NCBI GenBank assembly: GCA_913020725.1
Contig: CAJWCD010000005.1
Coordinates: 1-55,678, forward strand
Source of the DNA: an uncultured Pseudomonadota bacterium
Lineage (GTDB): Bacteria; SAR324; NAC60-12
Length of the DNA stretch: 55,678 nt
Reading direction: 5' to 3'
The position numbers and the translations under genes are program-made. The first letter of the stretch is position 1, and every line of letters starts with the position of its first letter. Positions 1 to 55,678 of the stretch are shown piece after piece. Under the pieces are notes generated by a model. That model made no database searches and had not been told where the DNA came from. It saw nothing but the letters and a program-made list of their open reading frames with translations.

Positions 1-84
1 AATCAGCTATTCTCAGGAATCAACCCACCGGTTGCACTTACGAGTTGAATCCGCGGGGTTTATTTTATAGATTCAAAAAAGGAT

Positions 85-1248
85 ATGAAGTTGGAACATG
101 ATTTGATTTTGAAGGGGGGTCGAGTGATTGATCCCATGCAAGGTCTGGATGCGGTTCGGGACATTGCTTTCAACGGTGGCCGGGTTTCAGCGATCGCTGA
201 ATCACTAGACGAAATCTCAGCAAAACGAGTGGAGGATATTTCTAGAAAGATCCTCAGTCCCGGACTGCTTGACCTGCACACCCACGTATACTGGGGCGGG
301 ACAGGGCTTGGGGTAAAGGCAGAGCCTGTAGCCCGCCGGAGCGGCACCACGACCTTTATTGACGCTGGAAGTGCTGGTGCTGGAAATTATGCTGGTTTCC
401 AGAGTTTTATTGCCGATCCAACCCCTCTAAACATATACGGATTTCTTAATATCTCATTTGCTGGAATCTGCGGATTCAGCTGCACGACTCCAAATCTCTT
501 TCCTGAATGTGAGGATATTCGTCTGTTGGATACTGCAGAATGTGTCCGGACAGCACGAGAATATGCCCACAGCGTGGTTGGTATCAAGGTGCGCATCGGA
601 CGCTATGCAAGCGGAAACGCCGGGTTGATTCCGCTTCAGATCGCGCGGGAAGTCGCGGAGGAACTGAAGTTGCCACTGATGACTCATGTAGATTTTCCAC
701 CCCCCGATCGGGATGATGTGCTAAATATTTTGCGTCCTGGTGACATCTTGACTCACTGCTTCCGGCCCTTTCCAAATGCACCGGTCGATGGCCAAGGAAG
801 TATACGTGAGTCGGTTAGGAAAGCGCGTGAGCGAGGAGTTTACTTCGACCTCGGACATGGTGCAGGGTCACTGTCCTTTAAAGTTAGCAGACAAATGCTT
901 GAGCAGAATTTCCTGCCGGATACTATAAGCAGCGACGTTCATCAAGCTAGCATCAATGGACCTGCCTTCGACAACTTGGTGACCATGTCCAAATTCCTCT
1001 GTCTGGGCATGCCCCTCGATCAAGTGATTTGTGCCTCGACTGCTACTCCAGCCAAAGCGATCGGTCGAACTGACCTGGGCACACTTGAGGTTGGGGCCCA
1101 AGGGGATGCGGTTGTTCTAAACATTGAAGACGGAGAGTTTGAGTACCACGATGTTACTGGAGACACATTTACAGGAAAACAAAGGCTCGTTGCAGAAAAG
1201 GTGATACTTCAAGGTGAAATCTGGCACGAGCAAGGGTCTGGTCAGTAA
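85..1248 (+). CDS. Amidohydrolase/deacetylase family metallohydrolase (dihydroorotase-like superfamily)
   Basis: N-terminal 'LILKGGRVIDP', HxH motif 'DLHTH', 'GTTTFIDAGSAG', Lys in 'GIKVR', 'MTH', 'LTHCF', Asp in 'ISSD', 'GTLEVGAQGD'. Confidence 0.85.
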   Translation: MKLEHDLILKGGRVIDPMQGLDAVRDIAFNGGRVSAIAESLDEISAKRVEDISRKILSPGLLDLHTHVYWGGTGLGVKAEPVARRSGTTTFIDAGSAGAGNYAGFQSFIADPTPLNIYGFLNISFAGICGFSCTTPNLFPECEDIRLLDTAECVRTAREYAHSVVGIKVRIGRYASGNAGLIPLQIAREVAEELKLPLMTHVDFPPPDRDDVLNILRPGDILTHCFRPFPNAPVDGQGSIRESVRKARERGVYFDLGHGAGSLSFKVSRQMLEQNFLPDTISSDVHQASINGPAFDNLVTMSKFLCLGMPLDQVICASTATPAKAIGRTDLGTLEVGAQGDAVVLNIEDGEFEYHDVTGDTFTGKQRLVAEKVILQGEIWHEQGSGQ

Positions 1249-1466
1249 AGGAACCCCTTAAAGATCAGGGCCGGCAAGGCACTTCGCTGGTTGGCAATCT
1301 GCGTCTGCAAAAAACCAACAAATTCTTTGGAATGGGTTGCTGGCTTTTTGTCGGACATGGACTAGAATGGGATTTGACCGACAATTCTCAGGTGTTGCGG
1401 TTACTGGAAAGGCAAGACTTGAATCCTGATGTTCAACTATATAATTTTTAATTTTTATAAAAAACA

Positions 1467-2690
1467 ATGACTTGGAATGTAAATGCAGACCGTCTTTGGG
1501 ATTCCCTGATGGAAATGGCGAAAGTCGGACCAGGAACTCAGGGAGGGAGCCGTAGACTCGCCCTTACTGACGAGGATGTTGCAGGCCGCAACCTCTTCCG
1601 GCATTGGGCCGGGGATGCCGGCTGCGCCTTGCGGCTGGATACGATGGGGAATCTCTTCGCCCGAAGGGAAGGCAAGCACCCAAACGCAGCGCCGGTGCTG
1701 TCCGGAAGCCATCTGGACACGCAGCCCTCCGGAGGTCGCTTTGACGGCATCCTTGGTGTACTGGGGGCACTGGAAGTAGTGCGTTCCCTCAACGATCATG
1801 GAGTGGAAACCGAAGCCCCATTTGAGGTAGTGGTCTGGACCAACGAGGAAGGTGCGCGCTTTCCACCTTCAATGATGGGATCTGGGGTGTTTGCAGGCAT
1901 CCTCGACCAAACCGAGATTTACTCGCACACCGACCCAGACGGTATCACGGTTGAGTCCGAACTACACCGGACTGGAGAATTGGGCAAAACCCCGTGTAAG
2001 GCATTTCCTATCAAAGCCTACTATGAACTGCACATTGAGCAGGGCCCGGTGCTGGAGGTGGAGAACACAATGATTGGAGTGGTCACGGGGGGACAGGGCT
2101 TATACTGGAAGCATATCACTTTGTGTGGACAGGACTCCCACGCGGGCACAACGCCGATGGCCTACCGCAAGGATGCACTGATGGGTGCTTCACGCATAAT
2201 TACTGGACTCCGTGAAATCATCCACAAACACTCAGGTTCAGTCTGTACAGTCGGTCGTTTGGAAACGATACCCGCATCCATCAACACAGTTCCTGGAGAA
2301 GTGTTCTTTACCGTGGACATCCGGCATCCTGATGATGCTACCCTTGAAGGCATCCACAATCAATTACTAGGCCTAGTGGATTCAGTCTGTAGGCAAGAGG
2401 GACTGTCAGTGAACTTCGACAACACCTGGAAAACACCCGCTGTAAATTTCCACGAGGATTGTATAGCCAAGGTACAAAGAGCTGCTCAGGATTTAGGTTT
2501 CAGCCATCGTGACATCGTATCCGGGGCCGGCCATGACGCTTGCCACGTCACCCACATCGCACCGACCGGGATGATCTTCATCCCCTGCGAAAATGGACTG
2601 AGCCACAACGAGGCCGAAAACACGACTCCGGAACAGGTTGCCGCCGGAGCTGATGTGCTGCTAAAAGCTGTTATGGCAAGTTCTGGCTGA
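1467..2690 (+). CDS. Zn-dependent M20-family hydrolase (N-carbamoyl-L-amino acid amidohydrolase / beta-ureidopropionase)
   Basis: 'GSHLDTQPSGGRFDG', 'WTNEEGARF', 'ELHIEQGPVLE', 'HAGTTPM', 'SGAGHDA', 'SHNEAE'. Confidence 0.9.
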   Translation: MTWNVNADRLWDSLMEMAKVGPGTQGGSRRLALTDEDVAGRNLFRHWAGDAGCALRLDTMGNLFARREGKHPNAAPVLSGSHLDTQPSGGRFDGILGVLGALEVVRSLNDHGVETEAPFEVVVWTNEEGARFPPSMMGSGVFAGILDQTEIYSHTDPDGITVESELHRTGELGKTPCKAFPIKAYYELHIEQGPVLEVENTMIGVVTGGQGLYWKHITLCGQDSHAGTTPMAYRKDALMGASRIITGLREIIHKHSGSVCTVGRLETIPASINTVPGEVFFTVDIRHPDDATLEGIHNQLLGLVDSVCRQEGLSVNFDNTWKTPAVNFHEDCIAKVQRAAQDLGFSHRDIVSGAGHDACHVTHIAPTGMIFIPCENGLSHNEAENTTPEQVAAGADVLLKAVMASSG

Positions 2691-2696
2691 CTTACC

Positions 2697-3725
2697 TCAT
2701 GTTGGAGTGTTGACCGGACGCCCAGTGATGGGATACTTGGGATCATTGTAGCCTGGAGTAGAGGGATGTCCCGCGGGCACAAGCGAGTTGAGGAGATCTT
2801 CATCCTCCTTGGTGAAGTCTGCGTCAAAAGCGGCGATGTAGGATTCCCATTGCTCAAAGGTACGAGGTCCAGCAATCACGCTTGTAACATTTCGGTTATT
2901 CAGCAGCCAAAGCAAGGCATAGGCAACCATGCTAGTGCCACGCTCACAGGTGTGTTTCATTAGGCGTTCGGTAATACGCAGTGATTCCTCGCGGAACTCA
3001 GTGGACATAATGCGGGCATCATTGCGTCCAGCTCGACTTCCCGGCTCCGGTGCCTGATCTACCCGGTATTTCCCCGTCAACACTCCGCGGGCCAATGGGG
3101 AGTAAGGAACAACACCAATTCCGTAGTATTCACATGCGGGCAGAATTTCCACCTCGGGCATGCGGTTGAGGGCGTTGTAGTAGGGCTGACAAACGATGGG
3201 TCGAGGGACGCTGAGCAAATCGCACTGCCGAGCCAGTTCAGCTATTTGCCATGCCTGAAAATTGGAGATGCCCCAGTAACGAATTTTTCCAGATTGGATG
3301 GCTTGTCCAATAGTCAGCACAGTTTCCTCTAGTGGCGTTTCGTGATCTGCCAGATGGAGGTACCAAATGTCAATCCATTCGGTTCCCAAACGCATTAGGC
3401 TGTCCTCCAGAGCCTGCATCATCCATCTTCGGCTTAGGCCTTGCTTCAAACCTGTGCCGCTCATTGGATTTCCCGCCTTGCTTGCAAGGATCCAGTCCTG
3501 ACGACGTTCTTGGATGGCTTGCCCCACGATCTCTTCTGAAAGTCCTTTGTGGTAAACATCGGCGGTGTCCACAAAATTCACGCTGTGGTCAAACGCATGA
3601 TCCAATATGCGGCGGGCGTCAGTTGCAGGGGTTTCAACACCAAACATCATGGTGCCCACACAAAGGGGAGGCACTTTCAATCCGGAGTAGCCAAGGCTGC
3701 ATCGTTTGTTGAGATCAATTTGCAT
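2697..3725 (-). CDS. Aldo/keto reductase
   Basis: 'GTMMFG', 'DTADVY', 'LASK', 'SLMRLGTEWIDIWYLH', 'GKIRYWGISN', 'YSPLARGVLTGKY'. Confidence 0.92.
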   Translation of the reverse strand: MQIDLNKRCSLGYSGLKVPPLCVGTMMFGVETPATDARRILDHAFDHSVNFVDTADVYHKGLSEEIVGQAIQERRQDWILASKAGNPMSGTGLKQGLSRRWMMQALEDSLMRLGTEWIDIWYLHLADHETPLEETVLTIGQAIQSGKIRYWGISNFQAWQIAELARQCDLLSVPRPIVCQPYYNALNRMPEVEILPACEYYGIGVVPYSPLARGVLTGKYRVDQAPEPGSRAGRNDARIMSTEFREESLRITERLMKHTCERGTSMVAYALLWLLNNRNVTSVIAGPRTFEQWESYIAAFDADFTKEDEDLLNSLVPAGHPSTPGYNDPKYPITGRPVNTPT

Positions 3726-3732
3726 GAGCGTT

Positions 3733-4626
3733 TTATACTGGTGAGTTGGTTGTCAAAGACGATTTTTCGGAAGAAGAAGGTTTTCGCAATGAAAGGATTG
3801 CGTTAAAAATCAGGGCTACAAGTACAAGTCCACCTCCGACGAAGGTCACGCGCGAGGGCACCTCGTTGAGAAACACCCAAACCCACAGCGGCCCTAGCAC
3901 CGTTTCGAGCAGCATGATGAGTCCGACTTCCGGAGCCGGAAGGTAGCGTGGAGCAAGGTTGATCGCGGCAAAAGCAATCGGCTGCACCACAAACCCCATC
4001 AACGCCAGCAGCCAATAGTCTGAAACTGGAACCTCGAAGGGGTCGGTGACGAAGAGCATCACCACCGCCGCGAGTACCCCACCAATACCGATGGTCGGCA
4101 CAAAGTTGAGCGTCTTCGCCTTGCGGATCAGCACGAACTGCACCGCCAGCGTCAGTGCGGTCAGAAACGCGAAGAACTCTCCGAACCAACTGCCTCCGGC
4201 AATGCCTTCCGCGAAAATCACAGCGATTCCGGCTCCTGCAATGGCGATGGAGACCCAAGTCCGTAGCGGCACCGCCTCTCGCAACACGAGCAGGCTCAAC
4301 AGAGCACTAAGCAGCGGTAATGAACTGAGGATGAGCAGGGCATTGGCGACGGCGGTTGCCTTGATCGCAAGGTTGAAACTCAACGAGCCGAAGGCGTAAA
4401 GCAGGGTCATTCCAACCCCGTACCAGCCCAGCCCCCGGAGCATGCGTCCAAAATTTCCGCGTTCTCTGATTGCGAAAAAGCCGAGCAGGACGATTCCCAC
4501 CAAAATTCCACGCCAAAAAGTCACCATCCAAGCGTCGCCATGGATCATGCGGATGATCAAGGCGTCCGGAGTCAGCACCAGAATGCCGCCGACTCCAATC
4601 AGTAGCCCCTTGGCGTGGTCCGTCAC
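3733..4626 (-). CDS. DMT/EamA family transporter
   Basis: About 10 hydrophobic segments in two repeats; 'APEVGLIMLLETVLGPLWVW...EVP'. Confidence 0.88.
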   Translation of the reverse strand: MTDHAKGLLIGVGGILVLTPDALIIRMIHGDAWMVTFWRGILVGIVLLGFFAIRERGNFGRMLRGLGWYGVGMTLLYAFGSLSFNLAIKATAVANALLILSSLPLLSALLSLLVLREAVPLRTWVSIAIAGAGIAVIFAEGIAGGSWFGEFFAFLTALTLAVQFVLIRKAKTLNFVPTIGIGGVLAAVVMLFVTDPFEVPVSDYWLLALMGFVVQPIAFAAINLAPRYLPAPEVGLIMLLETVLGPLWVWVFLNEVPSRVTFVGGGLVLVALIFNAILSLRKPSSSEKSSLTTNSPV

Positions 4627-4725
4627 AAGTTGTTCAAAAAATGGGTTTTTCGTGGTTTGTTTAAGCCGACATGGTAGGCTGAATTCCTACGAGACGCAAT
4701 CCATTCCACTGACTATTTCCTTGCA

Positions 4726-9068: not shown

Positions 9069-9780
9069 GCGCTTCCGTCCTCAAAATCTACGAGAAACCG
9101 ATCCTGTAACTTTTGACCGCTTGGTCCAGAATAACCCCTATCTGGCTAAAGTTCACGACTATCCCGAACTGCTGCTGCCCTATCCAACTCCGGAGCAGTT
9201 CCAAGCACTCTGGAAGCCAAAAGCGAAAGCGGTTCAACGTGTCCACCTCGAAATCGGCTGCGGGTCCGGACGCTACCTCAGCCAATGGGCGGCCCATTTT
9301 CCTGAAGATGCCTTTCTCGGATTTGAACTGCGTTTCAAGCGCATCACTCTTGCCGCCAAAAAGCTCCAACGAAATGAGCAATCGAACGCGCTTCTGCTCC
9401 GGGAGCGTGGGGAGTTTTTTGACGACTACCTCCAGCCGGGCACACTCGATGTCCTGCACGTCAACTTTCCGGACCCCTGGCCCAAGCAAGGCCATGCCAA
9501 GCATCGTTTGTTGAGTCAGGAATTTCTCACACGCCTGCACCCCTACTTTCATCCCAAGGGAGAGGTGCGTTTCAAAACGGATCACCTCGACTACTTCGAC
9601 TGGGTTTCTGAAACCTTCGCGTCCCTTCCGAGGTACCACGTCACTGCTCACACCCGTCACCTCCAAGCCAGTCCTCATGCCGAGGGCAACACTGCCACCG
9701 AATTCGAACTGCTGTTCCGCTCCAAAGGGGACCCGCCAATTGGGTTTCTGATTGCGGAGGTGGAACCTGAGCAAGGCTGA
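9067..9780 (+). CDS. trmB: tRNA (guanine-N7)-methyltransferase
   Basis: 'HLEIGCGSG', 'LGFE', 'NFPDPWPK', 'FKTD', 'TEFE'; ATG 9067 chosen within track ORF 8857-9780. Confidence 0.92.
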   Translation: MRFRPQNLRETDPVTFDRLVQNNPYLAKVHDYPELLLPYPTPEQFQALWKPKAKAVQRVHLEIGCGSGRYLSQWAAHFPEDAFLGFELRFKRITLAAKKLQRNEQSNALLLRERGEFFDDYLQPGTLDVLHVNFPDPWPKQGHAKHRLLSQEFLTRLHPYFHPKGEVRFKTDHLDYFDWVSETFASLPRYHVTAHTRHLQASPHAEGNTATEFELLFRSKGDPPIGFLIAEVEPEQG

Positions 9781-9793
9781 GTTTTTCAAACTC

Positions 9794-11431
9794 TTATGGG
9801 TCTGATTCTCCTAAATTGTCAATCATCGTATTGAAAATATCAAGCTGGTCATTATACACTTCACTGTGCATATTAATTGCACCCAGAACGCTGTGAAAAA
9901 TATTTTGATGTGAATGGCTTTTGCTCTGTTTAATTCGATTGATGTCAATTCCTTTTTTTTCAATGAATTCAGGCGACATCCATACAATGAATGGAATATG
10001 TGTTTGCACATCAGGAGCAACTGCATAAGGAACACCATGCAGGTACAATCCAAACTCTCCTAAAGATTCTCCATGATCAGAAATATAGATCATAACTGCT
10101 GGAGTTTTCAAATCTTGCAACAGGTTGATTGTTTGCGTAAGAAAATAATCCGTGTACAAGATTGAATTGTCATAAGCATTGACTAACTCATGATTAGTAC
10201 ATTGATTTAGTTCCACTGACTTACATACCGGTTTAAATATTTCATACTGTTTCGAGTATCTCTTGTAATACGATGGACCATGGCTACCCCAGCGATGTAT
10301 AACTATAAATATATTTTGCTGCATGGATGATCGAACCCGCTCTCCAAGCCCACTCAGCAAGACCTCATCATATTGACATTGATCCCCCTTGCATTCCCGC
10401 TCGAGTTCATCACTTCTTTGATAAGTATTAACCTTCATTGGCGGTTCGCCCCAATTGTTTGTTCGCCACACAACATCGACCCCGTGCCTTTGCAGGTAAC
10501 TCGGTAATGGCTCGTATTGTTTAGAAAACGGTGTGCTAACATCTTTGTGAGACAGAATACAACGTAGTGATAAAGTGGTATACGTGGCGCACGAAACCGT
10601 GTTATTTAATGCAATAACTCCTTGTTTTTCCAGTAGAGAGTTCGTTGGCCTGTTATATCCATATAGAGAAAAATTTTCTGCTCGTGCGGCCTCTCCTATC
10701 ACTAAAATAATTATTTTTTTTTCATCGCTTTCTTCAAGTTGTGCCGGTGGTAAAAGTTCCTGATTTGATGAGTATTTATGTTTCAATTGTTGCAGTCTAA
10801 TCGTATTTCCAATATACGACCAAGGCATAATTCTGGCACCTAATCTAGAAGAGTATTTGTCAATCCAAAGCAATTTATTCGCATTCAAATAAGTCCATGA
10901 AATTAAGACTACAATAAGCACAAATGATTGCAGAAATAGATTTATTCTCTTTACTTTCTTTATGCGAAATTTATATATAAATATACTCGGAATTACACCT
11001 AGAATGATTAGGTATAATATCATTTTATAATGCCAATAACTGGTTGCCTCAGTCAGATTCGTATTAAATACATTACTCATCATAGTTGTATCTAACACAA
11101 CTCGATAAGTAATCACAAAATAAAGTGCAATTGAGTTACATAACGCAACCAGTAGGCAAAATAACTTTGCTAAATTAAAAGATAGTATGCAGAGTACTAG
11201 CAGAAATAAAGAGGTAACAATAAAGATGACTATTACCACTGTTGCTATAATCAATACTCCGTTTAAGGACAGGTAATCGAGATTATTTGCAGTAAATAAA
11301 ATAACCGGGAAGTTATAGATGATAACATTGCAACATGACATCAATAAACTGAATTTCGTGGCATTAATACACCACTCTAAATTGCGAATATAATTCCAGG
11401 TACTGATCAAGTGTATGTACCGTTTAAACAT
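9794..11431 (-). CDS. eptA: Lipid A phosphoethanolamine transferase (EptA/MCR family)
   Basis: N-terminal TM region; 'VIGEAARA', catalytic Thr in 'SCATYT', 'GSHGPSY', 'NAYDNSILYTD', 'SDHGESLGE..LYLHG'; strongly AT-rich. Confidence 0.92.
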   Translation of the reverse strand: MFKRYIHLISTWNYIRNLEWCINATKFSLLMSCCNVIIYNFPVILFTANNLDYLSLNGVLIIATVVIVIFIVTSLFLLVLCILSFNLAKLFCLLVALCNSIALYFVITYRVVLDTTMMSNVFNTNLTEATSYWHYKMILYLIILGVIPSIFIYKFRIKKVKRINLFLQSFVLIVVLISWTYLNANKLLWIDKYSSRLGARIMPWSYIGNTIRLQQLKHKYSSNQELLPPAQLEESDEKKIIILVIGEAARAENFSLYGYNRPTNSLLEKQGVIALNNTVSCATYTTLSLRCILSHKDVSTPFSKQYEPLPSYLQRHGVDVVWRTNNWGEPPMKVNTYQRSDELERECKGDQCQYDEVLLSGLGERVRSSMQQNIFIVIHRWGSHGPSYYKRYSKQYEIFKPVCKSVELNQCTNHELVNAYDNSILYTDYFLTQTINLLQDLKTPAVMIYISDHGESLGEFGLYLHGVPYAVAPDVQTHIPFIVWMSPEFIEKKGIDINRIKQSKSHSHQNIFHSVLGAINMHSEVYNDQLDIFNTMIDNLGESDP

Positions 11432-11466
11432 CTAATTTAAATCAAAACAATACCTAGGAGGGGTTG

Positions 11467-12726
11467 TCAGCGGAGTTCAGAAATTTCCGAAACACTAAAC
11501 ACTCCAATTCGTTGCACCGCTTCAGCCATTTTGGGAAACATGGCGTCAAAATCCGTCCCTGCTTGGAGTGCGTTTCCGTTGTAGTCCACGGGAGAGAGCC
11601 GCACGCTCAAGTGTCCCGGAAGCATGTAGAAGGCGGCGCCGGGCAGCACGGCGACTTTGGCGTCTTCCAACAGCCGGGTGGCGAGGTCGTTGCTGGTGCG
11701 GATGTTTCGTGAAGCGAGTTGTTCCCGGAAAGGCTCAAAGTCTGGAAACAGGTAGAAGGCTCCCTCCGGTTCGGGGCAGTTGAGTCCGATGCCGAGCAGA
11801 GTTTGCCACATGCCTTTTGTGGCAGCACGGTGAATCGCCACGCAATGTTCCACTTCCTGACGGAGCTTTTCGTACTCGGCAAAGGCTGGAATCGCTGCGT
11901 ATTGAATGGGAGCGCTGGTGCAACTGAAGGTCTCGCTCACCAAGGCTCCCCACGGTTGCAGCAATTCCGACATGGCTTCCGGAAGCAGGGCCACTCCCAG
12001 CCGCCACCCTCCGGCGGAAAACGCCTTGGACAACCCGCTGGTGACCACTGTGCCCTCCGGGTACAGCGTCGCCATGCCCACAAAAGGCCGCTCGCTGAAA
12101 TTGACGAGCGCGTAGATCTCGTCTGCAATCACGACGACCTGATGGCGACGGCAGACCTCGGCCAACTCCTGCAACTCCTGCGCGTGGTGAACGCTTCCGG
12201 TGGGATTGCTCGGATTGGTGAGGATCAGCAGCTTTTGTCCGCTTCCGGACTCTTGACAGGCACGCTCCAGCTCTTCGGCCTGAAGGCGGTAGCGGTTTTC
12301 CCGCAGAGTGGGGATAGGCTGCACGGGCTTGCCAAGCATCCGAGCTTGTGGCCCATAGCTGACCCAGCTTGGCGCAGGAACCAGCAGCGGCCCTTCCAGC
12401 AAGTAGAGCAAGTCGAAGAGCAACTCCTTGCTTCCAGGACCGACAAACACCCGCTCCATGGCCGCGTCATACCCAAACTCCTTGCGGAAGAATCCCGCCA
12501 CCGCCTCCCGTAATTCTGGCAGTCCCGGTCCCGGCAGGTAACTCTTGTGGTGCGTGTTCTCGCGCAATGCCTGCTGGAGCAGTTCCGGAACTGGAAACGG
12601 AGACTCCCCGAAGCCGAGATGGCAAAGGTCTTCTCCGGCTTCCCGCATTCGCTTTGCGGTTTGGTTGATTTTCAGCGTTGCCGATTCTTCAAGTTCGGCA
12701 ACCCTCGGATTCAGAGCAAGTTTCAT
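11467..12726 (-). CDS. PLP-dependent class I/II aminotransferase (aspartate aminotransferase-like)
   Basis: 'GFGESPF', 'GPGSKE', 'NPSNPTG', 'DEIY', PLP lysine in 'GLSKAFSAGGWRLG', 'GAFYLFP'; ATG 12726 avoids overlap with glnS. Confidence 0.9.
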   Translation of the reverse strand: MKLALNPRVAELEESATLKINQTAKRMREAGEDLCHLGFGESPFPVPELLQQALRENTHHKSYLPGPGLPELREAVAGFFRKEFGYDAAMERVFVGPGSKELLFDLLYLLEGPLLVPAPSWVSYGPQARMLGKPVQPIPTLRENRYRLQAEELERACQESGSGQKLLILTNPSNPTGSVHHAQELQELAEVCRRHQVVVIADEIYALVNFSERPFVGMATLYPEGTVVTSGLSKAFSAGGWRLGVALLPEAMSELLQPWGALVSETFSCTSAPIQYAAIPAFAEYEKLRQEVEHCVAIHRAATKGMWQTLLGIGLNCPEPEGAFYLFPDFEPFREQLASRNIRTSNDLATRLLEDAKVAVLPGAAFYMLPGHLSVRLSPVDYNGNALQAGTDFDAMFPKMAEAVQRIGVFSVSEISELR

Positions 12727-21524: not shown

Positions 21525-24500
21525 CTACATGTTGCGCCGATATTGTCCGCCAAGTTGGTAAAGTTCCTGAGTGACTTGGCCCAGCGAACAGACTTTAGCA
21601 CAATCCATCAACGCCGCAAAGGTGTTTCCTCCGTGCAGGGCCGCCTTCCGGAGTTGATCGAGCGCTTTTTCGCGGGTTTCGGCGTGGAAGCTCTGGAAAT
21701 GTTCGAGGTCACGGATTTGCCACTGCTTCTCGTCCTCAGTGGAGCGGGCGAGTTCGATCTCCTCGTCTTCGGTCTGTGGTGCGGGGTTGAGGAAGGTGTT
21801 GATGCCGACCAGCGGGAGTTCTCCGGAATGCTTGAGGGTTTCGTAGAGCAGCGATTCCTCCTGAATCTTGTTGCGCTGGTACATCGTTTCCATCGCACCA
21901 AACACACCACCCCGCTCGGAGAGGCGCACGAACTCGCTGAGGATCGCCTCTTCCACGAGGTCCGTGAGTTCCTCAATGAGGAAACTGCCCTGAAGCGGAT
22001 TCTGGTTGAAGGCCTGTCCAAGTTCGCGGCTGATGATGAGTTGAATCGCCAACGCCCGCCGCACACTTTCCTGCGTCGGGGTGGTAATCGCCTCGTCGTA
22101 GGCGTTGGTGTGCAGAGAGTTGCAGTTGTCGTAGATTGCGTAGAGGGCCTGAAGCGTGGTGCGGATGTCGTTGAAGTCCATCTCCATCGCGTGCAGCGAG
22201 CGTCCGGAAGTCTGGATGTGGTACTTGAGCTTTTGCGAACGCTCATCTGCCCCGTAGAAGTCGCGTAAGGCCACCGCGAAAATGCGCCGCGCCACGCGGC
22301 CAATCACGGCATATTCCGGGTCCATCCCATTGCTGAAAAAATAGCTCAGGTTTTGCGCGAAACCATTGATGGATAGTCCGCGAGCAAGGTAGTATTCGAT
22401 GATCGTGAAACCGTTTGCCAGCGTGAAGGCGACCTGCGAAATCGGGTTCGCCCCGGCTTCGGCGATGTGGTAGCCGGAGATGCTGACGGAGTAGAAATTG
22501 CGGACGCGATAGTTCGTGAAAAATTCTTGGATGTCGCCCATCATGCGCATAGCGAATCCGGTGGAGAAGATGCAGGTGTTCTGCGCTTGGTCCTCCTTGA
22601 GGATGTCGGCTTGCACGGTGCCGCGTACATTTTGCAGCACCTCATCCCGGATACGTCCATACGTTTCTGCGTCAACCAATTCCGCTCCAGATAACCCCAG
22701 CAGCCCCAGCCCCAGCCCATTGTTGCCGTCGGGAACTTCCATGCGATATTCCGGGGCCGGAATCCCCTGCGACTGCCAGCGTGCGGCGATGGTTTTTTTC
22801 GCGGACTCCAGCCTTCCGGACTCGCGCAGGTGCCGCTCGACCTGCTGATCGGTGGCGGCGTTCATGAAGAAGGCAAGGATTGTCGGTGCAGGACCGTTGA
22901 TCGTCATTGACACCGAGGTGTTCGGTGTGATCAGATCGAATCCGGAGTAGAGCCGCTTGGCATCATCCAGCGTACAAACGGAAACCCCGGCGTTGCCAAC
23001 TTTCCCGTAGATATCCGGGCGGCGATGCGGGTCTGAACCGTAAAGCGTCACGGAATCGAATGCCGTGCTGAGGCGCGTTGCGGGTTGGTCTTTGGCGACA
23101 TAATGAAAACGCCGGTTGGTACGTTCGGACGTGCCCTCACCCGCGAACATCCGGGTGGGGTCTTCGTTTTCGCGTTTGAAGGGGAAGACGCCGGAAGTGT
23201 AGGGGAATTCGCCCGGAAAGTTCTCCAGCCCAAGCCAGCGCACGATCTCGCTCCAACTCTCGAAGCGAGGCACCGCGACCTTTGGGATGTTGAGACCAGA
23301 TAAGCTAAGCTTGCGGTTCTGCACCTCCAGCGTCTTGTCCCGGACTTGATAACAAAACACTTCACCGAGGTAGTTCTGCCGTCGCTCCTGAAACTCCACA
23401 AGTTGCTGCCACAACGATTCCGGAAACGCCTTCAGTTTCTCGTTGTAGAGCGTCGCCACCGGGCGCATCGCTTCCGTAAGCTGCTCGACATCTGCAAGTT
23501 GGAGCAGGTTTCCCGTTTGCGCAGGTGCGCCACCCCGCGCTACCTTCTGGGACTTTCCCCCTTTGGAACTTTGCTCCTCGACTCCGAATTGTCGCAGCGT
23601 CCCTTGCAACTGATCCAACTCACGAGCCTGCTCAGTGTGTTGCTGCACTTGCGCCTTGTAATCCCTGACGGTCGCGGCGATGCGGCGCAGGTAATCCTTG
23701 CGCTCCGCTGGGATCAATTCCGTTGCTGTGGAAGTAGCAGATTCCGCCGTGTAGCGGCGCTCCCATTCCAGAGGTTTCTGCTCCAAGAGCAGGTCGATCA
23801 TGCGCGTGTAGAACCAGTTGGTTCCGGGATCGTTGAATCCGCTGGCGACCACTCCGAAGACCGGGAAATTTTTCGGGTTCGCGTCAAACAAACCGTGGCT
23901 GCGGCGGTACTGCTTGCGGACCGCGTTGAGAGCATCTTCGGCTCCAGGTTTATCGAACTTGTTGACGACAATGACATCCGCGAAGTCGAGCATGTCAATC
24001 TTCTCAAGCTGCGTCGCCGCGCCGAACTCCGGGGTCATCACATAGATGCTGAAGTCCACGAGGTCAGTGATCTCGGAATCGCTCTGGCCGATCCCGGCGG
24101 TTTCGACAAGCACGAGGTCGTAGCGGGCCGCACGGAGCAGGCGGATGGTGTGCTGGAGGGCTTCAGAGGTGGCGAGGTGCGAGCGTCGCGTCGCCAGTGA
24201 ACGCATGAACACCCGTGGTGAATTCACGGCATTCATACGCAAACGGTCTCCAAGCAACGCCCCTCCGCTCTTACGCTTGGAGGGATCAACCGAGACCACA
24301 GCGATGTGCTTCTCCGGAAACTCCAACAGGAAGCGCCGCACGATTTCGTCCGTGAGGCACGATTTGCCCGCACCGCCCGTTCCAGTCAGGCCGACCACTG
24401 GCACCTCCGGGTTCTCCGGAAGGTCGCTCAGCGCTTTGCGGATGAGTTTGGGGCGCTCCAGATTTTCCTCGATCCAGGTGATGCTTTGGGCAACGTGGCC

Positions 24501-25001
24501 GACGTTTTCCGGAACAAGCCGCGCCGCATCCGGAGCGAAATCTTCCGGGATGGTGGAGAAATCCGAACGCTCCAACATGTCCGCGATCATACCCTCCAGT
24601 CCAAGTTGCCGCCCGTCCTCCGGAGAGTAGATGCGGCTCACGCCGTAATCCATCAATCCTTGAATCTCACGGGGGATGATGACTCCACCGCCGCCGCCAA
24701 AAACTTGGATGTGCTCTGCCCCCTTTTCACATAGCAGGTCCACCATGTAGCGGAAGAACTCGTTGTGGCCGCCCTGATAGGAACTGACGGCGATGCCCTG
24801 CGCGTCCTCCTGAATAGCGACATCCACAATTTCCTCGACGCCTCGGTCGTGTCCCAAGTGGATCACCTCGGCCCCCTGTACTTGCATGATGCGGCGCATG
24901 ATGTTGATCGAAGCATCGTGCCCGTCGAAAAGACTGGTGGCCGTGACCATCCGCACGGGATGCTGAAGCGTGGGACGCTTGCTAGGGAGAGGCCGGTTCA
25001 T
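21525..25001 (-). CDS. icmF: Fused isobutyryl-CoA mutase / MeaB-type GTPase
   Basis: B12-binding '[13 protein letters not shown]', GTPase 'GTGGAGKS' and 'LLGDRLRMN', mutase 'TRMFAGEG', 'RLSTAFD', '[12 protein letters not shown]', ends 'GGQYRRNM'. Confidence 0.95.
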
Positions 25002-31000: not shown

Positions 31001-31427
31001 TCTCCAAGGTTACACCTTGTTGGAAGTCGTGATCACGCTTGGAATCATCAGCCTCCTCTTGGGGCTGGCGTGGCCGTCCTTCCAACCGTGGAATGAGCGT
31101 GTACAGTTGGAAACGGAACTTGCGACGATCCGGGGCTTTGCCGAAGAAGCACAATGGTTGGCGCTCAGCACCCGCACCCGCCATTGGCTTGCAGGAAATG
31201 CGGACTCCGTTGAACTCCAACGCTCCGGAAACTCCGGATCCGAAACGCTCGACGCGCAACCACTGCCTCCGGATCTACAAGTCTCGGCCACCCGCTGGCC
31301 CAGTTTCAGTGCGTTTGGATTCGCCCAGGGCGGCACAATCACCCTGCGTTCTGGAACCCACGAGGGCAAGGTTGTGGTCAGCCCGCTTGGCCGCATCCGG
31401 ATCACGGGGCCGAATCGCCTCAACTGA
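30954..31427 (+). CDS. Type II secretion pseudopilin / type IV minor pilin (GspH/FimT-like)
   Basis: Prepilin cleavage motif G|YTLLEV with E5 and hydrophobic helix; C-terminal 'GGTITL...VVVSPLGRIRI'; start uncertain (TTG 30954). Confidence 0.75.
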   Translation: MPSPLSRVSSIKTPTDLQGYTLLEVVITLGIISLLLGLAWPSFQPWNERVQLETELATIRGFAEEAQWLALSTRTRHWLAGNADSVELQRSGNSGSETLDAQPLPPDLQVSATRWPSFSAFGFAQGGTITLRSGTHEGKVVVSPLGRIRITGPNRLN

Positions 31428-37058: not shown

Positions 37059-37913
37059 ATGAAAACCTTCCTCGACAAGATGAAAGACCTCAAGGCAGAA
37101 GAGTGTGCCCGACGAGGTTTGCAGATTTCCGAGGAAGAACTTCGTGAAAAAATCTCCGGACTGCCCATTCCGAATTCGCTTTCCACGGCACTGACCCGTA
37201 ACTCCGGAAATTCACCTGCGATCATCGCCGAGATCAAGGCCCGTGCTCCCGGACGTGAGAACGTCTCGGAACTCAAGCTTGAATCCGTCATCCGCGACTA
37301 CGAATCCGGAGGGGCCGCTGCGATCTCTGTGCTGACTGACGAGCAGTATTTTGGCGGCTCGCTGGAATCGCTGGCAACTGCATCCACACTCACGGACTTG
37401 CCCTTGCTACACAAGGAGTTCATCTTCTCGCCTTATCAGTTGTTGGAGGGCCGCATCCGGGGTGCGAGTGCTGCGCTGATCCTCGCCTATTACTTCACGG
37501 AGGAGGAATTGCGTTCCATCCTTGAGGAGGCACGCAACATCGGTCTGGAGTGCGTGGTTGAGGTTTCGTTGGAATCAGAAGTGCCCAGAGTGCTTGCGGT
37601 GAATCCGGATCTTCTCATGGTCAACAACCGCGCTATCGCCGCCCTCCCGGAAAATCCCACAAAGACTTACATGCAAGGCTCCCCGCAGGTCACGGTGGAC
37701 TACTGGAACCACCACGCTGACCTCCGAAAGTGGAAACAGCAACCTGGCAAGCTGCTGATCAGCGCCAGCAGTGTCAGCACACCTGCGGACACTGCCGTGC
37801 TTGCTTCGGTGCCTTGCGATGCCGTCCTTGTTGGCAACGCAGCCATGACCGCCACAGATCGAGTGAGCTTTCTCCATTCACTGAACACTCCAGTCCAATC
37901 TCACGCCGCCTGA
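37059..37913 (+). CDS. trpC: Indole-3-glycerol-phosphate synthase family protein (divergent)
   Basis: 'IIAEIK', 'GAAAISVLTDEQYFGGS', 'YQL...GASA', 'NNR', 'AVLVG'; several motifs altered. Confidence 0.72.
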   Translation: MKTFLDKMKDLKAEECARRGLQISEEELREKISGLPIPNSLSTALTRNSGNSPAIIAEIKARAPGRENVSELKLESVIRDYESGGAAAISVLTDEQYFGGSLESLATASTLTDLPLLHKEFIFSPYQLLEGRIRGASAALILAYYFTEEELRSILEEARNIGLECVVEVSLESEVPRVLAVNPDLLMVNNRAIAALPENPTKTYMQGSPQVTVDYWNHHADLRKWKQQPGKLLISASSVSTPADTAVLASVPCDAVLVGNAAMTATDRVSFLHSLNTPVQSHAA

Positions 37914-48555: not shown

Positions 48556-48586
48556 TTGATTTGCTGTGGTGAGGGTGGAAGAGAGT

Positions 48587-52294: not shown

Positions 52295-52364
52295 TGCTGG
52301 TTGTCGGTTAGTTGGTTGTCGGTTATTGGTTTTCAGTTTTCGGTGATTTGGTACTGGCTATCGG
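52294..52364. repeat. Degenerate tandem heptamer repeat (TTrTyGG / TTTTCrG)
   Basis: TTGCTGG TTGTCGG TTAGTTGG TTGTCGG TTATTGG TTTTCAG TTTTCGG ... CTATCGG. Confidence 0.7.
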
Positions 52365-52413
52365 TTGTTACTTGCTGACCACTGAGTGCTGCAAACTGAC
52401 CACCTAATTCAAA

Positions 52414-53148
52414 TCAAGAGGCTTTGCGGGATTCAAGCACGACCACATTGACGAGCAGCATGAAACCGATGACGGAGAGGAAGTACACTAAATCTCGCAG
52501 GTCAATCACACCACGGCGCAGGGCTTCAAAATGGGTGGTGAAACTGAACTGCGCAATCAAATCGGTGAGCCAGACGGGTAGAATCGTGTTGAGTGCTTCG
52601 GACATCACCCCCCAACCGAGCAACACCAAAACAAGGCAGATAACGACACTGAGGATAAAGCTGATCACCTGATTCTTTGTGAGGGCCGAGGTGCAACTGG
52701 CCACCGCCAGATAAGCACCCGCCATCAGCAGACTGCCGAGGTAACCCGCCACAATGGGGCCGTTGTCCGGCTCGCCCAAGTAGTGCACGGTGAAGATCAT
52801 CGGAAACGTGAGAACCAGTGCGACCGCGATAAACGCCCACGCCGCCAGGAATTTGGCCAGCACCGCTGTGATCAGCCGCACCGGCAGGGTGAGCAACAGT
52901 TCCACAGTTCCGGAATGACGTTCCTCTGCCCAGAGCCGCATCCCCACCGCCGGGATCAAGAAGAGGTAGAGCCACGGATGGAAGAGGAAGAACAACTCTA
53001 GGCTCGCCTGCTGAGAGTCGTAGTAGTTTCCGAGCAGAAAGGTGCAGCCCGCGTTGGCCACCAAGAAGATGACGATGAACACATACGCAACGGGCGAGCG
53101 GAAGTACGCCAGCAGTTCGCGCTTGAGAATCGGAATGAGGCCGTTCAT
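52414..53148 (-). CDS. ABC transporter permease (GldF-like)
   Basis: 'KREL..YF.SPVAY', 'MRLWAEERHSGTVELLLT', 'TKNQ', 'RGVIDLRD'. Confidence 0.9.
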   Translation of the reverse strand: MNGLIPILKRELLAYFRSPVAYVFIVIFLVANAGCTFLLGNYYDSQQASLELFFLFHPWLYLFLIPAVGMRLWAEERHSGTVELLLTLPVRLITAVLAKFLAAWAFIAVALVLTFPMIFTVHYLGEPDNGPIVAGYLGSLLMAGAYLAVASCTSALTKNQVISFILSVVICLVLVLLGWGVMSEALNTILPVWLTDLIAQFSFTTHFEALRRGVIDLRDLVYFLSVIGFMLLVNVVVLESRKAS

Positions 53149-53256
53149 GGGTTTTCTAGTTTTCAGTGGTCAGTGGTCAGCGGACGGTTTTGCTGTTCGT
53201 GAACGGGGGCGCCACCACATCAGGATTTCGGATGATTGGTTTCCAGGAATTCGGAA

Positions 53257-54201
53257 TCAGGCGGCAGCTTGGGTGAGCTTGCGGAACACCTCGTCCAGCC
53301 GTCCGCGTTCGACATAAAACTGCTCCGGAATCAGCTTGCGGGAGGAGACGTACTCCTGAACTTCGGAGGTGATCGTGCGTCCGGACTGCGGGAAAATCCG
53401 TACACTTGCAAGCCCAGCAGAGGATTCCGAAAGAATTTTCTCGACACGAGAAACCGAGTCGATCCGTTCCAGTTCCTCTTGCATCTGATCCGGATTGGCG
53501 TCGCGGACGCTGAGGGTCACGGCGTTATGGTACTCCGATTTTTCCAGCAACTCGTCCGGAGTGCCGTAGCCCACCAACTTTCCGGAGGCGATGATCAACG
53601 CCCGTGTGCAGACCGCCTCCACCTCCTCAAGGATGTGGGTGGAAACGAGAATGGTACGGTCAGCACTCATGCGTTGGATGAGGTTGCGCACCTCGTGCTT
53701 CTGGTTGGGATCAAGGCCATCGGTCGGTTCGTCCAAAACAAGCACGGGCGGGTCGTGTAGCAACGCCTGTGCAAGGCAAGTGCGCTGGCGGTAGCCCTTG
53801 GAGAGCGTGTCAATCAGTTGCGTCTGCACCTCGGTGAGTCCGGTGGTGGCGAGGACGTACGCTATACGCTTCGCCAAATCCTTGCCGGAAAATCCCCGGA
53901 CTTCGCCGATGAACTGCAAAAATTCCTCGACAAGCATCTCGCTGTACGAAGGAGCGCTCTCCGGCAGGTAGCCGATGTTGAGTTGCGCCTTCAGCGGTTC
54001 GTTGAGGATGCTGTGTCCGCACACGGTCGCATCCCCGGAGCTGGGGGTGAGGAAGCCCGTGAGCATCTTCATCGTGGTGGATTTTCCAGCACCGTTTGGT
54101 CCCAGAAATCCCAACACCTCTCCGCGCTCGACGCTGAAGGAGATTTCGTGGACGGCCTGTATGGCACCAAATTGCTTGCTCAGTTTCTGGACATGAATCA
54201 T
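53257..54201 (-). CDS. ABC transporter ATP-binding protein (GldA-like)
   Basis: 'GPNGAGKST', 'LSKGYRQR', 'LDEPTDGLDP', 'STH'. Confidence 0.93.
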   Translation of the reverse strand: MIHVQKLSKQFGAIQAVHEISFSVERGEVLGFLGPNGAGKSTTMKMLTGFLTPSSGDATVCGHSILNEPLKAQLNIGYLPESAPSYSEMLVEEFLQFIGEVRGFSGKDLAKRIAYVLATTGLTEVQTQLIDTLSKGYRQRTCLAQALLHDPPVLVLDEPTDGLDPNQKHEVRNLIQRMSADRTILVSTHILEEVEAVCTRALIIASGKLVGYGTPDELLEKSEYHNAVTLSVRDANPDQMQEELERIDSVSRVEKILSESSAGLASVRIFPQSGRTITSEVQEYVSSRKLIPEQFYVERGRLDEVFRKLTQAAA

Positions 54202-54316
54202 CGTTTCGGGTCCGTGACAAATTCTGGAGTCAAAGTCTCAAATGTTATCTGACATTACTACAATTTTTCGCTCATATTGCAAGCATTCTATCAGGAGCAA
54301 GCAGACACAGCAGCGG

Positions 54317-54883
54317 TCAACCCGTTGGAATGCGGTTTCCGCCCTGAGCGAGGTAGGCGCTTCTGGCCTCAGCCAGTCCGGACGTTGAGCCTTTTGCGCT
54401 GAGTTGGTTTTGCAGATCGTCTTCCAAGAGCAGGCCAAACTGTGTGGTGCGCTCCAGTTGTTGCAGCAACACTTCCGGAACGAAAAAGACTGTCGAGATT
54501 GATTGGAGAATGCCGTCAAGATCGTTGCGACCATTGATTGCCACAAGTGCAACGGATTCGCCACTGTCGGTCCGGAAGGTGATTTTAGCTTGAGCGGCCA
54601 GTGGGAGTAGCGTGTTCCAGTGCAGTTCCGCTACCCAACCGTAACGTGCCTGCCGGGAGAACATCAGGAAAACAGGGTGCTCCGGAAGCGCCTCCGAACG
54701 GAGGGTTCCCAGCACCCCGCCGTTGCCATGCCCGCAAGCCCGGAAGAAAAGAGTGCGGGCGTCCTGCACACAGTTGCGGAACCCGCTGATCGCTTCCCAC
54801 TCAGCCCAAGCTGAAGTTCCCCAGCAGAGCAGCAGAGCGGCGCCACACACACTCAGTCGGCGTCGGTTTTGAGTCCGCAGCAT
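54317..54883 (-). CDS. Hypothetical exported protein
   Basis: Signal peptide ending 'AWA'; fills the gap in operon orientation. Confidence 0.55.
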   Translation of the reverse strand: MLRTQNRRRLSVCGAALLLCWGTSAWAEWEAISGFRNCVQDARTLFFRACGHGNGGVLGTLRSEALPEHPVFLMFSRQARYGWVAELHWNTLLPLAAQAKITFRTDSGESVALVAINGRNDLDGILQSISTVFFVPEVLLQQLERTTQFGLLLEDDLQNQLSAKGSTSGLAEARSAYLAQGGNRIPTG

Positions 54884-54890
54884 TCAGGAG

Positions 54891-55199
54891 TCATCTTTGG
54901 AGCAGAGAGGGGTGAGTGCGAGCCTTGGCGATGAAACTTGGATTCACCTGCCCCTTGGACATGGCATCGGAAGAACGAATCCGCTTGCCCGCCGGAGTTG
55001 TGGCAGGGGTGTATTTCCCGCCAGATCGGCCAATGCGAGTGGATGCGGCTTGCATGAAAGCGAGCCGCTTCGCCCACAGGCTCAGGTAGGCTTCGTCGTA
55101 GATCGAGGGAGAGGCCGTGGCGGATTGGGGAGGTTCTTGAGCCAACACCAAGGTGCTGCCGAACAGTAGTGCGGCGAGCAGAATCAGATAGATGCGCAT
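54891..55199 (-). CDS. Hypothetical small exported protein
   Basis: AAAGGAGG RBS; 'MRIYLILLAALLFGSTLVLA' signal peptide. Confidence 0.6.
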   Translation of the reverse strand: MRIYLILLAALLFGSTLVLAQEPPQSATASPSIYDEAYLSLWAKRLAFMQAASTRIGRSGGKYTPATTPAGKRIRSSDAMSKGQVNPSFIAKARTHPSLLQR

Positions 55200-55218
55200 G
55201 TGCCCTCCTTTGGGAAGC

Positions 55219-55287
55219 GGGTCGTGTCCGGAACACCGCCCAATCAGGGCTGGACGAAACACCAGCCCACGGTCTCCGGAATGACCC
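55219..55287. other. Long interrupted stem-loop in the leader of the 55199 gene
   Basis: Nested pairs GGGTC/GACCC, TCCGGA/TCCGGA, ACCG/CGGT, GGGCTGG/CCAGCCC. Confidence 0.6.
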
Positions 55288-55537
55288 ATTTCTTTCAAAC
55301 TAGCGGAAATTTCGGCTGGGGTCAACTCCGAAACGGGGAAATCCCGACGCTTTTTGCCAATGGATAGTCCCCGAATATTTCAGCAACTTGGGCATCAGTT
55401 CCCATGGATGAAGGGGGGTGCTGCAAAAAAAATGCTGTTTAAGTCTTGAAATTTTCGGGAGGGAGGGTAAAAAAATTCGTGATTTCTTCCACTCCGGGAA
55501 GGATTTGCGAACCTGACCTTTTTCCCAAGAGGTTCCC

Positions 55538-55678
55538 ATGCGCAAGTCATTCGTCCTCGCCCTCATCACCCTGATTCCCCTCTCCACAAGTGCCGATCAG
55601 TTTTCGATACTTTCGGACTCATATATCGCAACTTCAAGGCGGGCTTTGAGGACACCCTCATCGAAACCGCCTGCGGAC
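55538..55678 (+). CDS. Partial exported protein (runs off the window)
   Basis: GAGG RBS; 'MRKSFVLALITLIPLSTSA' signal-peptide-like; open to the end of the window. Confidence 0.5.
   Translation, partial: MRKSFVLALITLIPLSTSADQFSILSDSYIATSRRALRTPSSKPPAD

Follow-up and report, generated by a model that had tools for sequence, protein, structure and literature searches.

Here we report that the palindromic hexamer TCCGGA is both hyper-abundant and spaced by helical phase in the genome of an uncultured SAR324 bacterium. The window that we analysed is an entire contig of 55,678 bases (C5) from an assembly, here called G000, of 3.45 Mb in 204 contigs with a completeness of 93.3%. In G000, pairs of neighbouring TCCGGA sites are depleted when the two sites share one DNA face, an integer number of helical turns apart, compared with pairs on opposite faces, separated by half-integer turns; in some related genera the sign of this coupling is reversed. 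We tentatively propose, giving it slightly less than an even chance, that a sequence-specific reader centred on the dyad of the site, probably a DNA-binding or DNA-modifying protein, drives the accumulation of sites and couples neighbours through the geometry of the helix.

Results

When every pair of TCCGGA sites in G000 is tallied by distance, the counts oscillate, with troughs near 21, 32, 42, 52, 63, 74 and 84 bp and peaks near 27, 37, 48, 58, 69 and 79 bp. In coding DNA the observed/expected ratio (O/E) fell to 0.11, 0.13 and 0.19 at 21, 32 and 42 bp and stood at 1.0-1.4 at the peaks. Summed over seven periods, 153 pairs fell in the trough windows and 485 in the peak windows, where 359 would be expected for either set (p = 4e-41). 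A damped cosine fitted to the data (R2 0.58) exhibited a period of 10.51 ± 0.04 bp, a phase of 2.96 rad, which places the maxima at half-integer turns, an amplitude of 0.60 and a decay length of 109 ± 24 bp. The phase contrast persisted at 150-200 bp (1.06 vs 1.24) and vanished beyond 300 bp.

The same preference can be seen in the window, where 14 opposite-face and 5 same-face pairs were counted at distances of 14-100 bp. Opposite-face pairs are found, for example, at 1701..1733 (27 bp, 2.5 turns) and 37155..37208 (48 bp, 4.5 turns), and a rare same-face pair lies at 24508..24534 (21 bp, 2 turns), a spacing class (20-22 bp) represented genome-wide by 6 pairs where 51 are expected. Two sites at 31224..31238 are 9 bp apart; like the other pairs they have no strand. 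Spacings of 9 and 10 bp are over-represented genome-wide (37 and 22 pairs vs 17 expected per distance), with unrelated flanks in the 45 examples listed.

No oscillation was observed in 25 synonymous shuffles of all coding sequences (0.95 vs 1.03). Pairs with at least one non-coding site behaved as coding pairs did (14 same-face vs 58 opposite-face, p = 2e-7), and the coupling was present at both in-frame and out-of-frame distances. The periodicity of protein alpha-helices (10.8 nt) was rejected as its source on all of these grounds, and also on that of the measured period.

The coupling is specific for this word. TCCGGA was the extreme case of all 1,281 hexamer classes that number 1,200 sites or more (z = 10.7; background mean -0.22, sd 1.15); the runner-up, CCGGAA (z 6.4), and four of the next seven classes overlap it, and no unrelated class oscillated. 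Among 400 pentamer classes, CCGGA reached z = 21.3 and the next class 4.7. Other frequent hexamers showed no phase oscillation. No A+T periodicity was found around 5,242 isolated TCCGGA sites, and nucleosome-like compositional phasing was therefore rejected.

When TCCGGA was held as the anchor and the partner was varied, the same-face/opposite-face ratio was 0.21 for a TCCGGA partner and 0.43 for CCCGGA/TCCGGG, 0.82 and 0.81 for half-cognate partners flanked by G and A, 0.97 for CCGG without cognate flanks, and 0.8-1.1 for inner-position variants and controls. Abundance and coupling follow a single rank order over the flanks T, C, G, A and none, with the coupling optimum at the full hexamer. 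The maxima lay at 5.1-5.5 + 10.5k bp whether or not the cognate half-site faced the anchor, and this unchanged phase places the centre of the coupling at the CCGG dyad. Multiplied by the genome-wide O/E of 7.35, the trough ratios come to 0.8-1.4, so that same-face TCCGGA sits at about the compositional baseline. On a face that already carries a site, the enriching force seems to be inactive. This phase coupling lends indirect support to one option raised in an earlier note on the window, namely that the word is a chromosome-organising signal. The literature that we searched, with subscription journals mostly outside its reach, yielded no report of helix-period spacing for over-represented palindromes, and none of a SAR324 methylation motif or of TCCGGA over-representation.

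The enrichment itself is large. TCCGGA is dispersed without strand over the whole window (1..55678), in all codon phases and between genes, with 139 sites or about 1 per 400 bp. At zero order 16.7 sites would be expected, and 100 dinucleotide-preserving shuffles of the window gave a mean of 18.97 (sd 4.39, maximum 30). These counts bear out the earlier note, which had estimated about 130 or more sites against some 17 expected. Also present are 445 CCGG, 247 TCCGG, 246 CCGGA and 21 TTCCGGAA. The last of these had been put forward as a frequent form of the site; it accounts for 21 of the 139 sites, and across the genome the octamer is no more frequent than its heptamers predict (order-6 Markov O/E 1.01).

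In G000 as a whole, where GC content (56.8%) is close to that of the window (56.3%), TCCGGA is the top-ranked hexamer, with 7,675 sites or one per 449 bp; it also ranks first in samples of the genomes G002, G003 and G013. Its O/E was 7.35 at zero order, 6.51, 3.37 and 2.43 under Markov models of orders 1-3, and 1.00 at order 4. Open reading frames (ORFs) were called by a simple codon-score heuristic, which gave 2,650 ORFs that are not curated genes. They contained 6,637 sites, compared to 1,972 ± 39 in 20 synonymous shuffles preserving each protein and each gene's codon usage (3.4-fold). By reading frame, the ratio to the codon shuffle was 3.7, 2.0 and 4.1, in line with the earlier observation that the word occurs in several codon phases. 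Intergenic stretches of up to 300 bp held 209 sites where 37.7 were expected, and the intergenic O/E was 5.5-6.1. The synonymous shuffle, the enrichment in three frames and the intergenic enrichment together reject a codon or dipeptide explanation. We conclude that the enrichment acts at the DNA level and is unexplained by codon usage.

TCCGGA density climbed only mildly with local GC in G000. Two or fewer sites were found in 8 of its 579 5-kb windows, 4 of which are below 50% GC, and the spacing of sites was near-exponential overall (coefficient of variation 1.06). Flank palindromy did not extend past the hexamer in 0.73 of coding and 0.72 of non-coding sites, and each further step was reached by progressively fewer. 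Because palindromy stops at the hexamer inside and between genes alike, the sites are not the cores of hairpins or of a repeat family, and the intergenic hairpins of the earlier note do not generalize. An origin from a repeat family was also rejected on the near-exponential spacing and the unrelated flanks of the pairs inspected.

The anatomy of the signal is that of two multiplying half-sites. In G000, 51.5% of CCGG sites have a 5' T, and 26.4%, the square of 0.515, are TCCGGA. The O/E of CCGG was 0.50, 1.92 and 7.35 with 0, 1 and 2 cognate flanks; arithmetic on the flank matrix puts each flank at a factor of about 3.8, and the preference was graded in the order T (7.35) > C (2.48) > G (1.65), A (1.55). 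The order-4 O/E of 1.00 means that, given CCGG, the 5' T and the 3' A occur independently, as additive binding energy would give, and we read it as additive half-site recognition rather than as no signal. Order-4 values were 1.01, 1.14 and 1.10 in G002, G003 and G013. By this measure, the full hexamer is not enriched beyond its sub-words in G000. The earlier note had taken an O/E near 1 after correction for TCCGG as a sign against its proposal. That value was indeed obtained, yet synonymous-site bias is strong: the genome-wide count stands out 3.4-fold against the codon shuffle and not at all against the order-4 model. TCCGG/CCGGA is the most over-represented pentamer under the maximal-order Markov model (order 3, O/E 1.56) and the second by base composition (3.10, behind TTTTT/AAAAA at 3.13). 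The transition neighbours are enriched, not depleted (TCTGGA/TCCAGA, O/E 2.39; TTCGGA/TCCGAA, 1.62).

We then compared 88 SAR324 genomes by whole-genome word counts. Nearly all are incomplete metagenome bins, in which a sequence that is not found may still be present in the organism, and GC was estimated from samples of 3-20 kb for many genomes and of 170-400 kb for others, which makes the O/E values approximate. TCCGGA O/E was 4-7 in the genus of G000 (g1, with G000, G001 and G002), 6.6-8.7 in g2 (G003, G014 and G055), 3-12.6 in g12 (GC about 41%), about 3.7 in g5 (G006), 3.5 in g11 (G012), 2.5-2.8 in g4 and g7, and about 1 or below in g3, g6 and g10. A density of more than 343 sites per Mb surpasses the highest possible zero-order expectation. 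The genera g2 and g3 are equally close to g1 in GlnRS identity (72-74%), and enrichment was seen in none of the nine g3 genomes. Elsewhere the word is strongly avoided, with 25-31 sites in 3.4 Mb (G083, G084), 37-40 sites in 1.6-1.7 Mb (G021, G026) and, in G068, 11 sites in 3.1 Mb; AGGCCT, a control of matched composition, occurs 1,584-1,728 times in G083/G084 and 143-182 times in G021, G026 and G068. Avoidance of at least 10-fold was also noted in G086, G087, G023 and G067. With enrichment in some lineages and avoidance in others, TCCGGA is therefore under strong lineage-specific pressure in both directions.

Pair spacing was followed in the classes 20-22, 25-27, 31-33, 36-38, 41-43 and 46-48 bp, with an expectation for relatives of 3n^2/L per three-distance class, worked out by hand from rounded genome sizes. 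The opposite-face rule is common to the three g1 genomes, G014 and G012. The six counts were 6, 54, 6, 75, 10 and 68 in G000 (expected 51), 1, 18, 2, 26, 0 and 33 in G001 (expected 23), and 10, 49, 20, 63, 22 and 57 in G014 (expected 57); at 31-33 vs 36-38 bp, G002 had 6 vs 58 pairs (expected 32) and G012 had 1 vs 13 (expected 5). G003 showed short-range exclusion only (9, 26, 42, 44, 67 and 39; expected 51), and its fellow g2 member G055 had 96 vs 64 pairs at 31-33 vs 36-38 bp (expected 83).

The rule was reversed in all five g12 genomes tested (G013, G043, G045, G046 and G038) and in G006, where same-face pairs were 2-6-fold enriched. The six counts were 16, 12, 42, 10, 36 and 7 in G006 (expected 13) and 23, 12, 33, 20, 29 and 7 in G013 (expected 14). 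At 31-33 vs 36-38 bp, G043 had 117 vs 27 pairs (expected 29), G045 110 vs 23 (expected 32), G046 63 vs 10 (expected 27) and G038 137 vs 14 (expected 22). The pair sequences listed have unrelated flanks, so the pairs in relatives are not copies of a repeat, and an assembly artefact is unlikely because other species, assembled separately, show the coupling too.

The relatives cannot be counted as independent cases. Many sites are common to the g1 species (65% between G000 and G002), but only a few sites of G000 recur in g2 and g12. Between G000 and G002 (four-fold-site identity 0.745), 256 of the 392 aligned TCCGGA sites were conserved, compared to a median of 62% for 15 hexamers with at least 150 aligned occurrences. 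Between G000 and G003 (identity 0.383) the figure was 104 of 521 (20% vs 15%; rank 10 of 52), and with the non-enriched G004 it was 3 of 206. The codon CCG was kept at 0.845 inside the motif vs 0.688 outside (p = 7e-6), and GGA at 0.791 vs 0.631 (p = 2e-4), so that both are lost about half as often inside as outside. This pattern fits a weak maintenance force.

Discussion

Our results show that pair statistics of TCCGGA depend on helical phase at distances of one to several turns. Local processes such as neighbour-dependent mutation, codon-pair preference and peptide selection are blind to a site 2-15 turns away, so the agent must read geometry. Additive half-sites, the rank order shared by abundance and coupling, the dyad centring and a B-DNA period that decays on the scale of DNA stiffness point to a dimeric sequence-specific protein. 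On this basis, one SAR324 family would have a dyad-centred, sequence-specific reader for which TCCGGA is the best site; most likely, this reader would be a dimeric protein that binds, bends or modifies DNA. Occupancy by the reader would drive fixation: sites may accumulate via a weak bias scaled to recognition, of a strength of about ln 3.8 = 1.3 per T/A half-site flank, either by selection for binding or by biased repair coupled to the reader. Readers on neighbouring sites would then interact through DNA geometry. In g1, a second same-face site within about 50-100 bp would gain no advantage, and its frequency would return to about the compositional baseline, whereas same-face pairs would be favoured in g12 and in the single g5 genome examined. 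The interaction between bound neighbours would thus be anticooperative in g1 and cooperative in g12.

The closest precedent for such phase-dependent two-site reading is SeqA, whose dimer reads two GATC copies only if they are suitably spaced, with both roughly on one face of the helix (PMC2691817). This matches the same-face enrichment in g12. SeqA differs in that it needs Dam methylation, and in g1 the sign for TCCGGA is negative, with same-face pairs depleted.

A more far-reaching form of the proposal is possible, although we consider it doubtful: family f1 may use a genome-wide helical-phase code, in which an abundant architectural or modifying protein recognises TCCGGA, pushes it up to 1-3 sites per kb and orders neighbours by face. 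Placement would be opposite-face and anticooperative in the genus of G000, and same-face (2-4 turns) and cooperative in g12, a scheme to which we give the same low standing. If true, the nucleoid would have an organisation encoded in sequence, of a kind not known from any bacterium, and this would offer a direct clue to the purpose of palindromes of this kind.

Several results weigh against a reader of the kind proposed. The codons TCC (0.763 vs 0.727) and CGG (0.682 vs 0.712) are no better kept inside the motif than outside, and the conservation of whole sites in position is barely above that of other frequent hexamers. The pair counts in relatives carry the kinship of the genomes and the rounded sizes used for their expectations. 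A/T tracts also prefer opposite faces, as set out below, and a general curvature constraint could lie behind part of the effect. No reader protein was identified, and no complete, unambiguous DNA methyltransferase or restriction gene was seen in G000 in searches that covered methyltransferase families and Vsr only. Finally, the one methyltransferase-like candidate, P0001, tracks neither enrichment nor coupling sign.

The rival that survives best, though we regard it as unlikely, is a true analogue of the highly iterated palindromes (HIPs) of cyanobacteria. An orphan methyltransferase acting on TCCGGA or CCGG, together with methyl-directed or very-short-patch-like biased repair, would create and maintain the sites, and the methyltransferase or a partner nuclease would be the reader, as in Elhai's model for cyanobacterial HIP1 (GCGATCGC; PMC4390886). 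TCCGGA resembles HIP1 and the alternate HIPs in being a short, GC-rich, dispersed and hyper-abundant palindrome that occurs in all frames and in non-coding DNA, with lineage-specific gains and losses and raised near-cognate variants (PMC4390886, PMC5861425). Alternate HIPs accompany a cognate methyltransferase, and rCCGGy is over-represented (PMC4390886). In abundance, frames, intergenic presence and lineage specificity, the comparison with HIPs drawn in the earlier note therefore stands; a cognate methyltransferase with Vsr-type biased repair was not found in G000, at its completeness of 93.3%.

TCCGGA departs from HIP1 in other ways as well. It is a hexamer at 7-12x, fully accounted for by its two pentamers and only slightly more conserved than controls, and it has a helical-phase coupling; HIP1 is an octamer at 15-300x and clearly conserved (PMC5861425). 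The word "helical" is absent from the available text of these two main HIP papers, supplements not included, and the periodicity analysis in PMC5861425 bins HIP1 spacings at about 5 kb. TCCGGA spacing is structured on a far shorter scale. A study of HIP1 periodicity reportedly found periods of 10-90 kb.

Profile searches gave little support to the methyltransferase with Vsr-type repair envisaged earlier. PF00145 (C5 methyltransferase) had no match in G000, G001, G002 or G014, and PF03852 (Vsr) none in G000, G002, G003 or G014, with a single match in G001. PF07669 had no match in G000; PF02384 had one, in a gene cut by the end of contig C168. Almost no restriction-modification genes were seen in the G000 assembly, for which no dedicated search for restriction endonucleases was made. 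In G003 and G013, fragments of C5 methyltransferases proved to be truncated remnants at unrelated places. The one in G013 (C43:1-2177, locus L119) breaks off after about 70 residues and is followed by regularly repeated short sequences, which look like a CRISPR-type array read as protein.

Dcm/Vsr very-short-patch repair shapes the frequencies of CCWGG-related words in E. coli, and it resembles the present case in that biased repair linked to a short methylated palindrome can make the motif commoner and alter the frequency of its neighbours throughout the genome. Besides the missing matches, TCCGGA differs in that the T:G-derived neighbours TCTGGA/TCCAGA are enriched (2.39), the deamination neighbours being undepleted, and in that very-short-patch repair predicts no phase coupling.

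The only candidate for an orphan methyltransferase was P0001, a methyltransferase-like protein of 579 aa encoded outside the window (C49:18038-19774, minus strand), with orthologues in loci L151-L170 and L233-L261. It is the sole match to PF01555 and PF02086 in G000. A disordered, charged stretch of 160 N-terminal residues precedes motif I (DPFMGGGT) and motif IV (NPPY), and a protein 99% identical to it is named "DNA adenine methylase" in a public source. Its predicted fold (AlphaFold, Foldseek) gave weak matches, about equally to tRNA m2G methyltransferases (5e71, 3tma) and to E. coli Dam (4rtj), so that a DNA substrate is unproven. Orthologues were found in 50 of the 88 genomes, including intact copies in the non-enriched g3, g6, g10 and g13; a phylum-wide profile search found none in g8, g9 or g11, the genus of the enriched G012. 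In-frame stop codons in the g12 orthologues were apparent only, being the natural ends of the genes.

Motif IV of P0001 is of some interest. The family consensus is SPPY/SPPF, with the serine encoded by AGT or AGC. In g1 the codon AGT has undergone three separate one-base changes next to identical adjacent residues (G000, AAT, N; G001, TGT, C; G002, CGT, R), and the motif is altered also in g4, g5 and g7 (APPA, RPPL/RPPF, NPPM/HPPL). This suggests that catalysis may have been lost or changed repeatedly while the protein was otherwise retained. At least 517 TCCGGA per Mb occur in all 8 examined genomes whose motif is altered, vs 3 of the 11 aligned genomes that keep SPPY (G003, G014 and G013), an association that speaks for the HIP analogue; g2 and g12 are enriched despite an intact motif. 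Judged by its orthologues, the phylum-wide profile search, the motif IV states and the fold, P0001 was provisionally rejected as the cognate enzyme.

Less likely still is an explanation by DNA mechanics without a specific protein, in which TCCGGA would be intrinsically bent or anisotropically flexible and selection on curvature would cancel bends in g1 and add them in g12. Dyad-centred coupling and a period equal to the B-DNA repeat are what such a process would give. Moreover, A/T tracts of at least 4 prefer half-integer turns to each other in G000 (amplitude 0.115; same-face 1.22 vs opposite-face 1.39), as they do in G002, in G004 and in all three orientation classes; many bacteria show the opposite, an in-phase A-tract periodicity. 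TCCGGA and A/T tracts together show a weak integer-turn preference in G000 (amplitude 0.026), as cancelling bends of opposite direction would. The amplitude for TCCGGA is, however, about five times that for A/T tracts, and isolated sites lack a periodic A+T signal. In a 400-kb sample of G013, A/T tracts remained opposite-face (amplitude 0.059, noise about 0.018) while TCCGGA pairs were same-face enriched. As the tracts keep one phase while TCCGGA flips, the TCCGGA coupling is motif-specific and its sign is independent of the general pattern. Mechanics would also leave the 7-12x enrichment itself without a reason.

We consider it improbable that the spacing reflects a two-site nuclease hazard, whereby an enzyme holding two TCCGGA sites cuts or deletes the DNA between same-face neighbours and so purges such pairs. 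Helical-phase dependence is known for two-site restriction enzymes. Since other SAR324 lineages avoid TCCGGA more than 10-fold, unlike AGGCCT in most of them, restriction specific for TCCGGA plausibly circulates in the phylum. A hazard of this kind explains neither the enrichment, nor a same-face density at about the compositional baseline instead of zero, nor the same-face enrichment in g12, and sites more than 150 bp apart could still loop together. The remaining idea, that context-dependent mutation bias and codon or dipeptide preference suffice with no reader and no function, has very little chance of being right: it has in its favour the order-4 O/E, the commonness of TCC, GGA, CCG and CGG as codons and the general frequency of TCC- or GGA-containing words in the family, G004 included, but local effects cannot sense a site 21-150 bp away at a 10.5-bp period, the excess is 3.4x over the synonymous-shuffle null and 5.5x between genes, and the trait is unseen in the nine g3 genomes although g3 is as near to g1 as the enriched g2.

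Two further classes of words invite comparison with the sites of the proposed reader. The DNA uptake sequences (DUS) and uptake signal sequences (USS) of Neisseriaceae and Pasteurellaceae are asymmetric words of 9-12 nt at about one per kb, which spread by molecular drive and mark "self" DNA. TCCGGA shares their brevity and approximate density. It differs as a 6-bp palindrome with graded half-sites and no extension beyond the hexamer, and it lacks the asymmetric 9-12-mer form of uptake signals, which often stand in inverted pairs in terminators; its flank palindromy falls off equally fast inside and outside coding DNA. Palindromes avoided because of restriction belong to the same class of word with the opposite sign. 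Six-bp palindromes are mostly avoided in G000 (median O/E 0.26; GGGCCC 0.05, CCCGGG 0.18), as TCCGGA is in other SAR324 genomes, and TCCGGA is the single strongly enriched palindrome of G000. TACGTA (0.05), CGTACG (0.06) and CCGCGG (0.09) are also among the avoided words, and CCCGGG lies 4-fold under even a pentamer-based expectation.

The hyper-abundant palindromes of cyanobacteria have been known for thirty years, and their mechanism is still disputed. TCCGGA provides an independent case in an abundant, uncultured ocean phylum. It comes with a quantitative recognition profile (additive half-sites, flank preference T > C >> G, A), with natural contrasts in the form of sister genera without the trait, lineages that avoid the word and a switch of sign in the spacing rule, and with a coupling at the helical period, for which a molecule that reads DNA geometry is required. 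The pair-distance test is applicable at once to HIP1 and other over-represented words. In addition, the density and the spacing rule of TCCGGA can serve in practice to bin SAR324 DNA and to recognise DNA that was acquired recently.

Other observations

The iterated palindrome seems to differ from lineage to lineage within the family. Among the palindromic hexamers of G000, TGATCA ranks second in enrichment (2.61), and its O/E is 2.3-2.9 in G000 and in samples of G002, G003 and G004, the last of which is not enriched in TCCGGA; this word might go with the enzyme of P0001 type found across the phylum. In G013, a second palindrome, CTGCAG, is hyper-abundant (O/E 6.7; sample L262-L281); it reaches 3.7 and 2.3 in samples of G003 and G004, and is avoided in G000 (0.34).

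The largest TCCGGA-free gap of the window (9474..11977; 2,510 bp, no strand) contains an AT-rich ORF for an EptA-type phosphoethanolamine transferase (9794-11431, minus strand; PF00884 and PF08019). The earlier note was correct that the word is missing from this insert; because composition predicts only 0.17 sites there, its absence is not significant. The ORF, with 35.6% GC in a contig of 56%, sits between an unassigned ORF adjoining recX and an aminotransferase gene, and was probably acquired recently. Elsewhere, the minus strand at 21525-25001 encodes a protein of 1,158 aa with an IcmF-like architecture, in which a B12-binding domain, a MeaB-type GTPase and a methylmalonyl-CoA-mutase domain are fused. 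It is adjoined by a gene for an Ldh_2-family (malate/L-lactate) dehydrogenase, and an acyl-CoA dehydrogenase gene lies about 0.6 kb further on.

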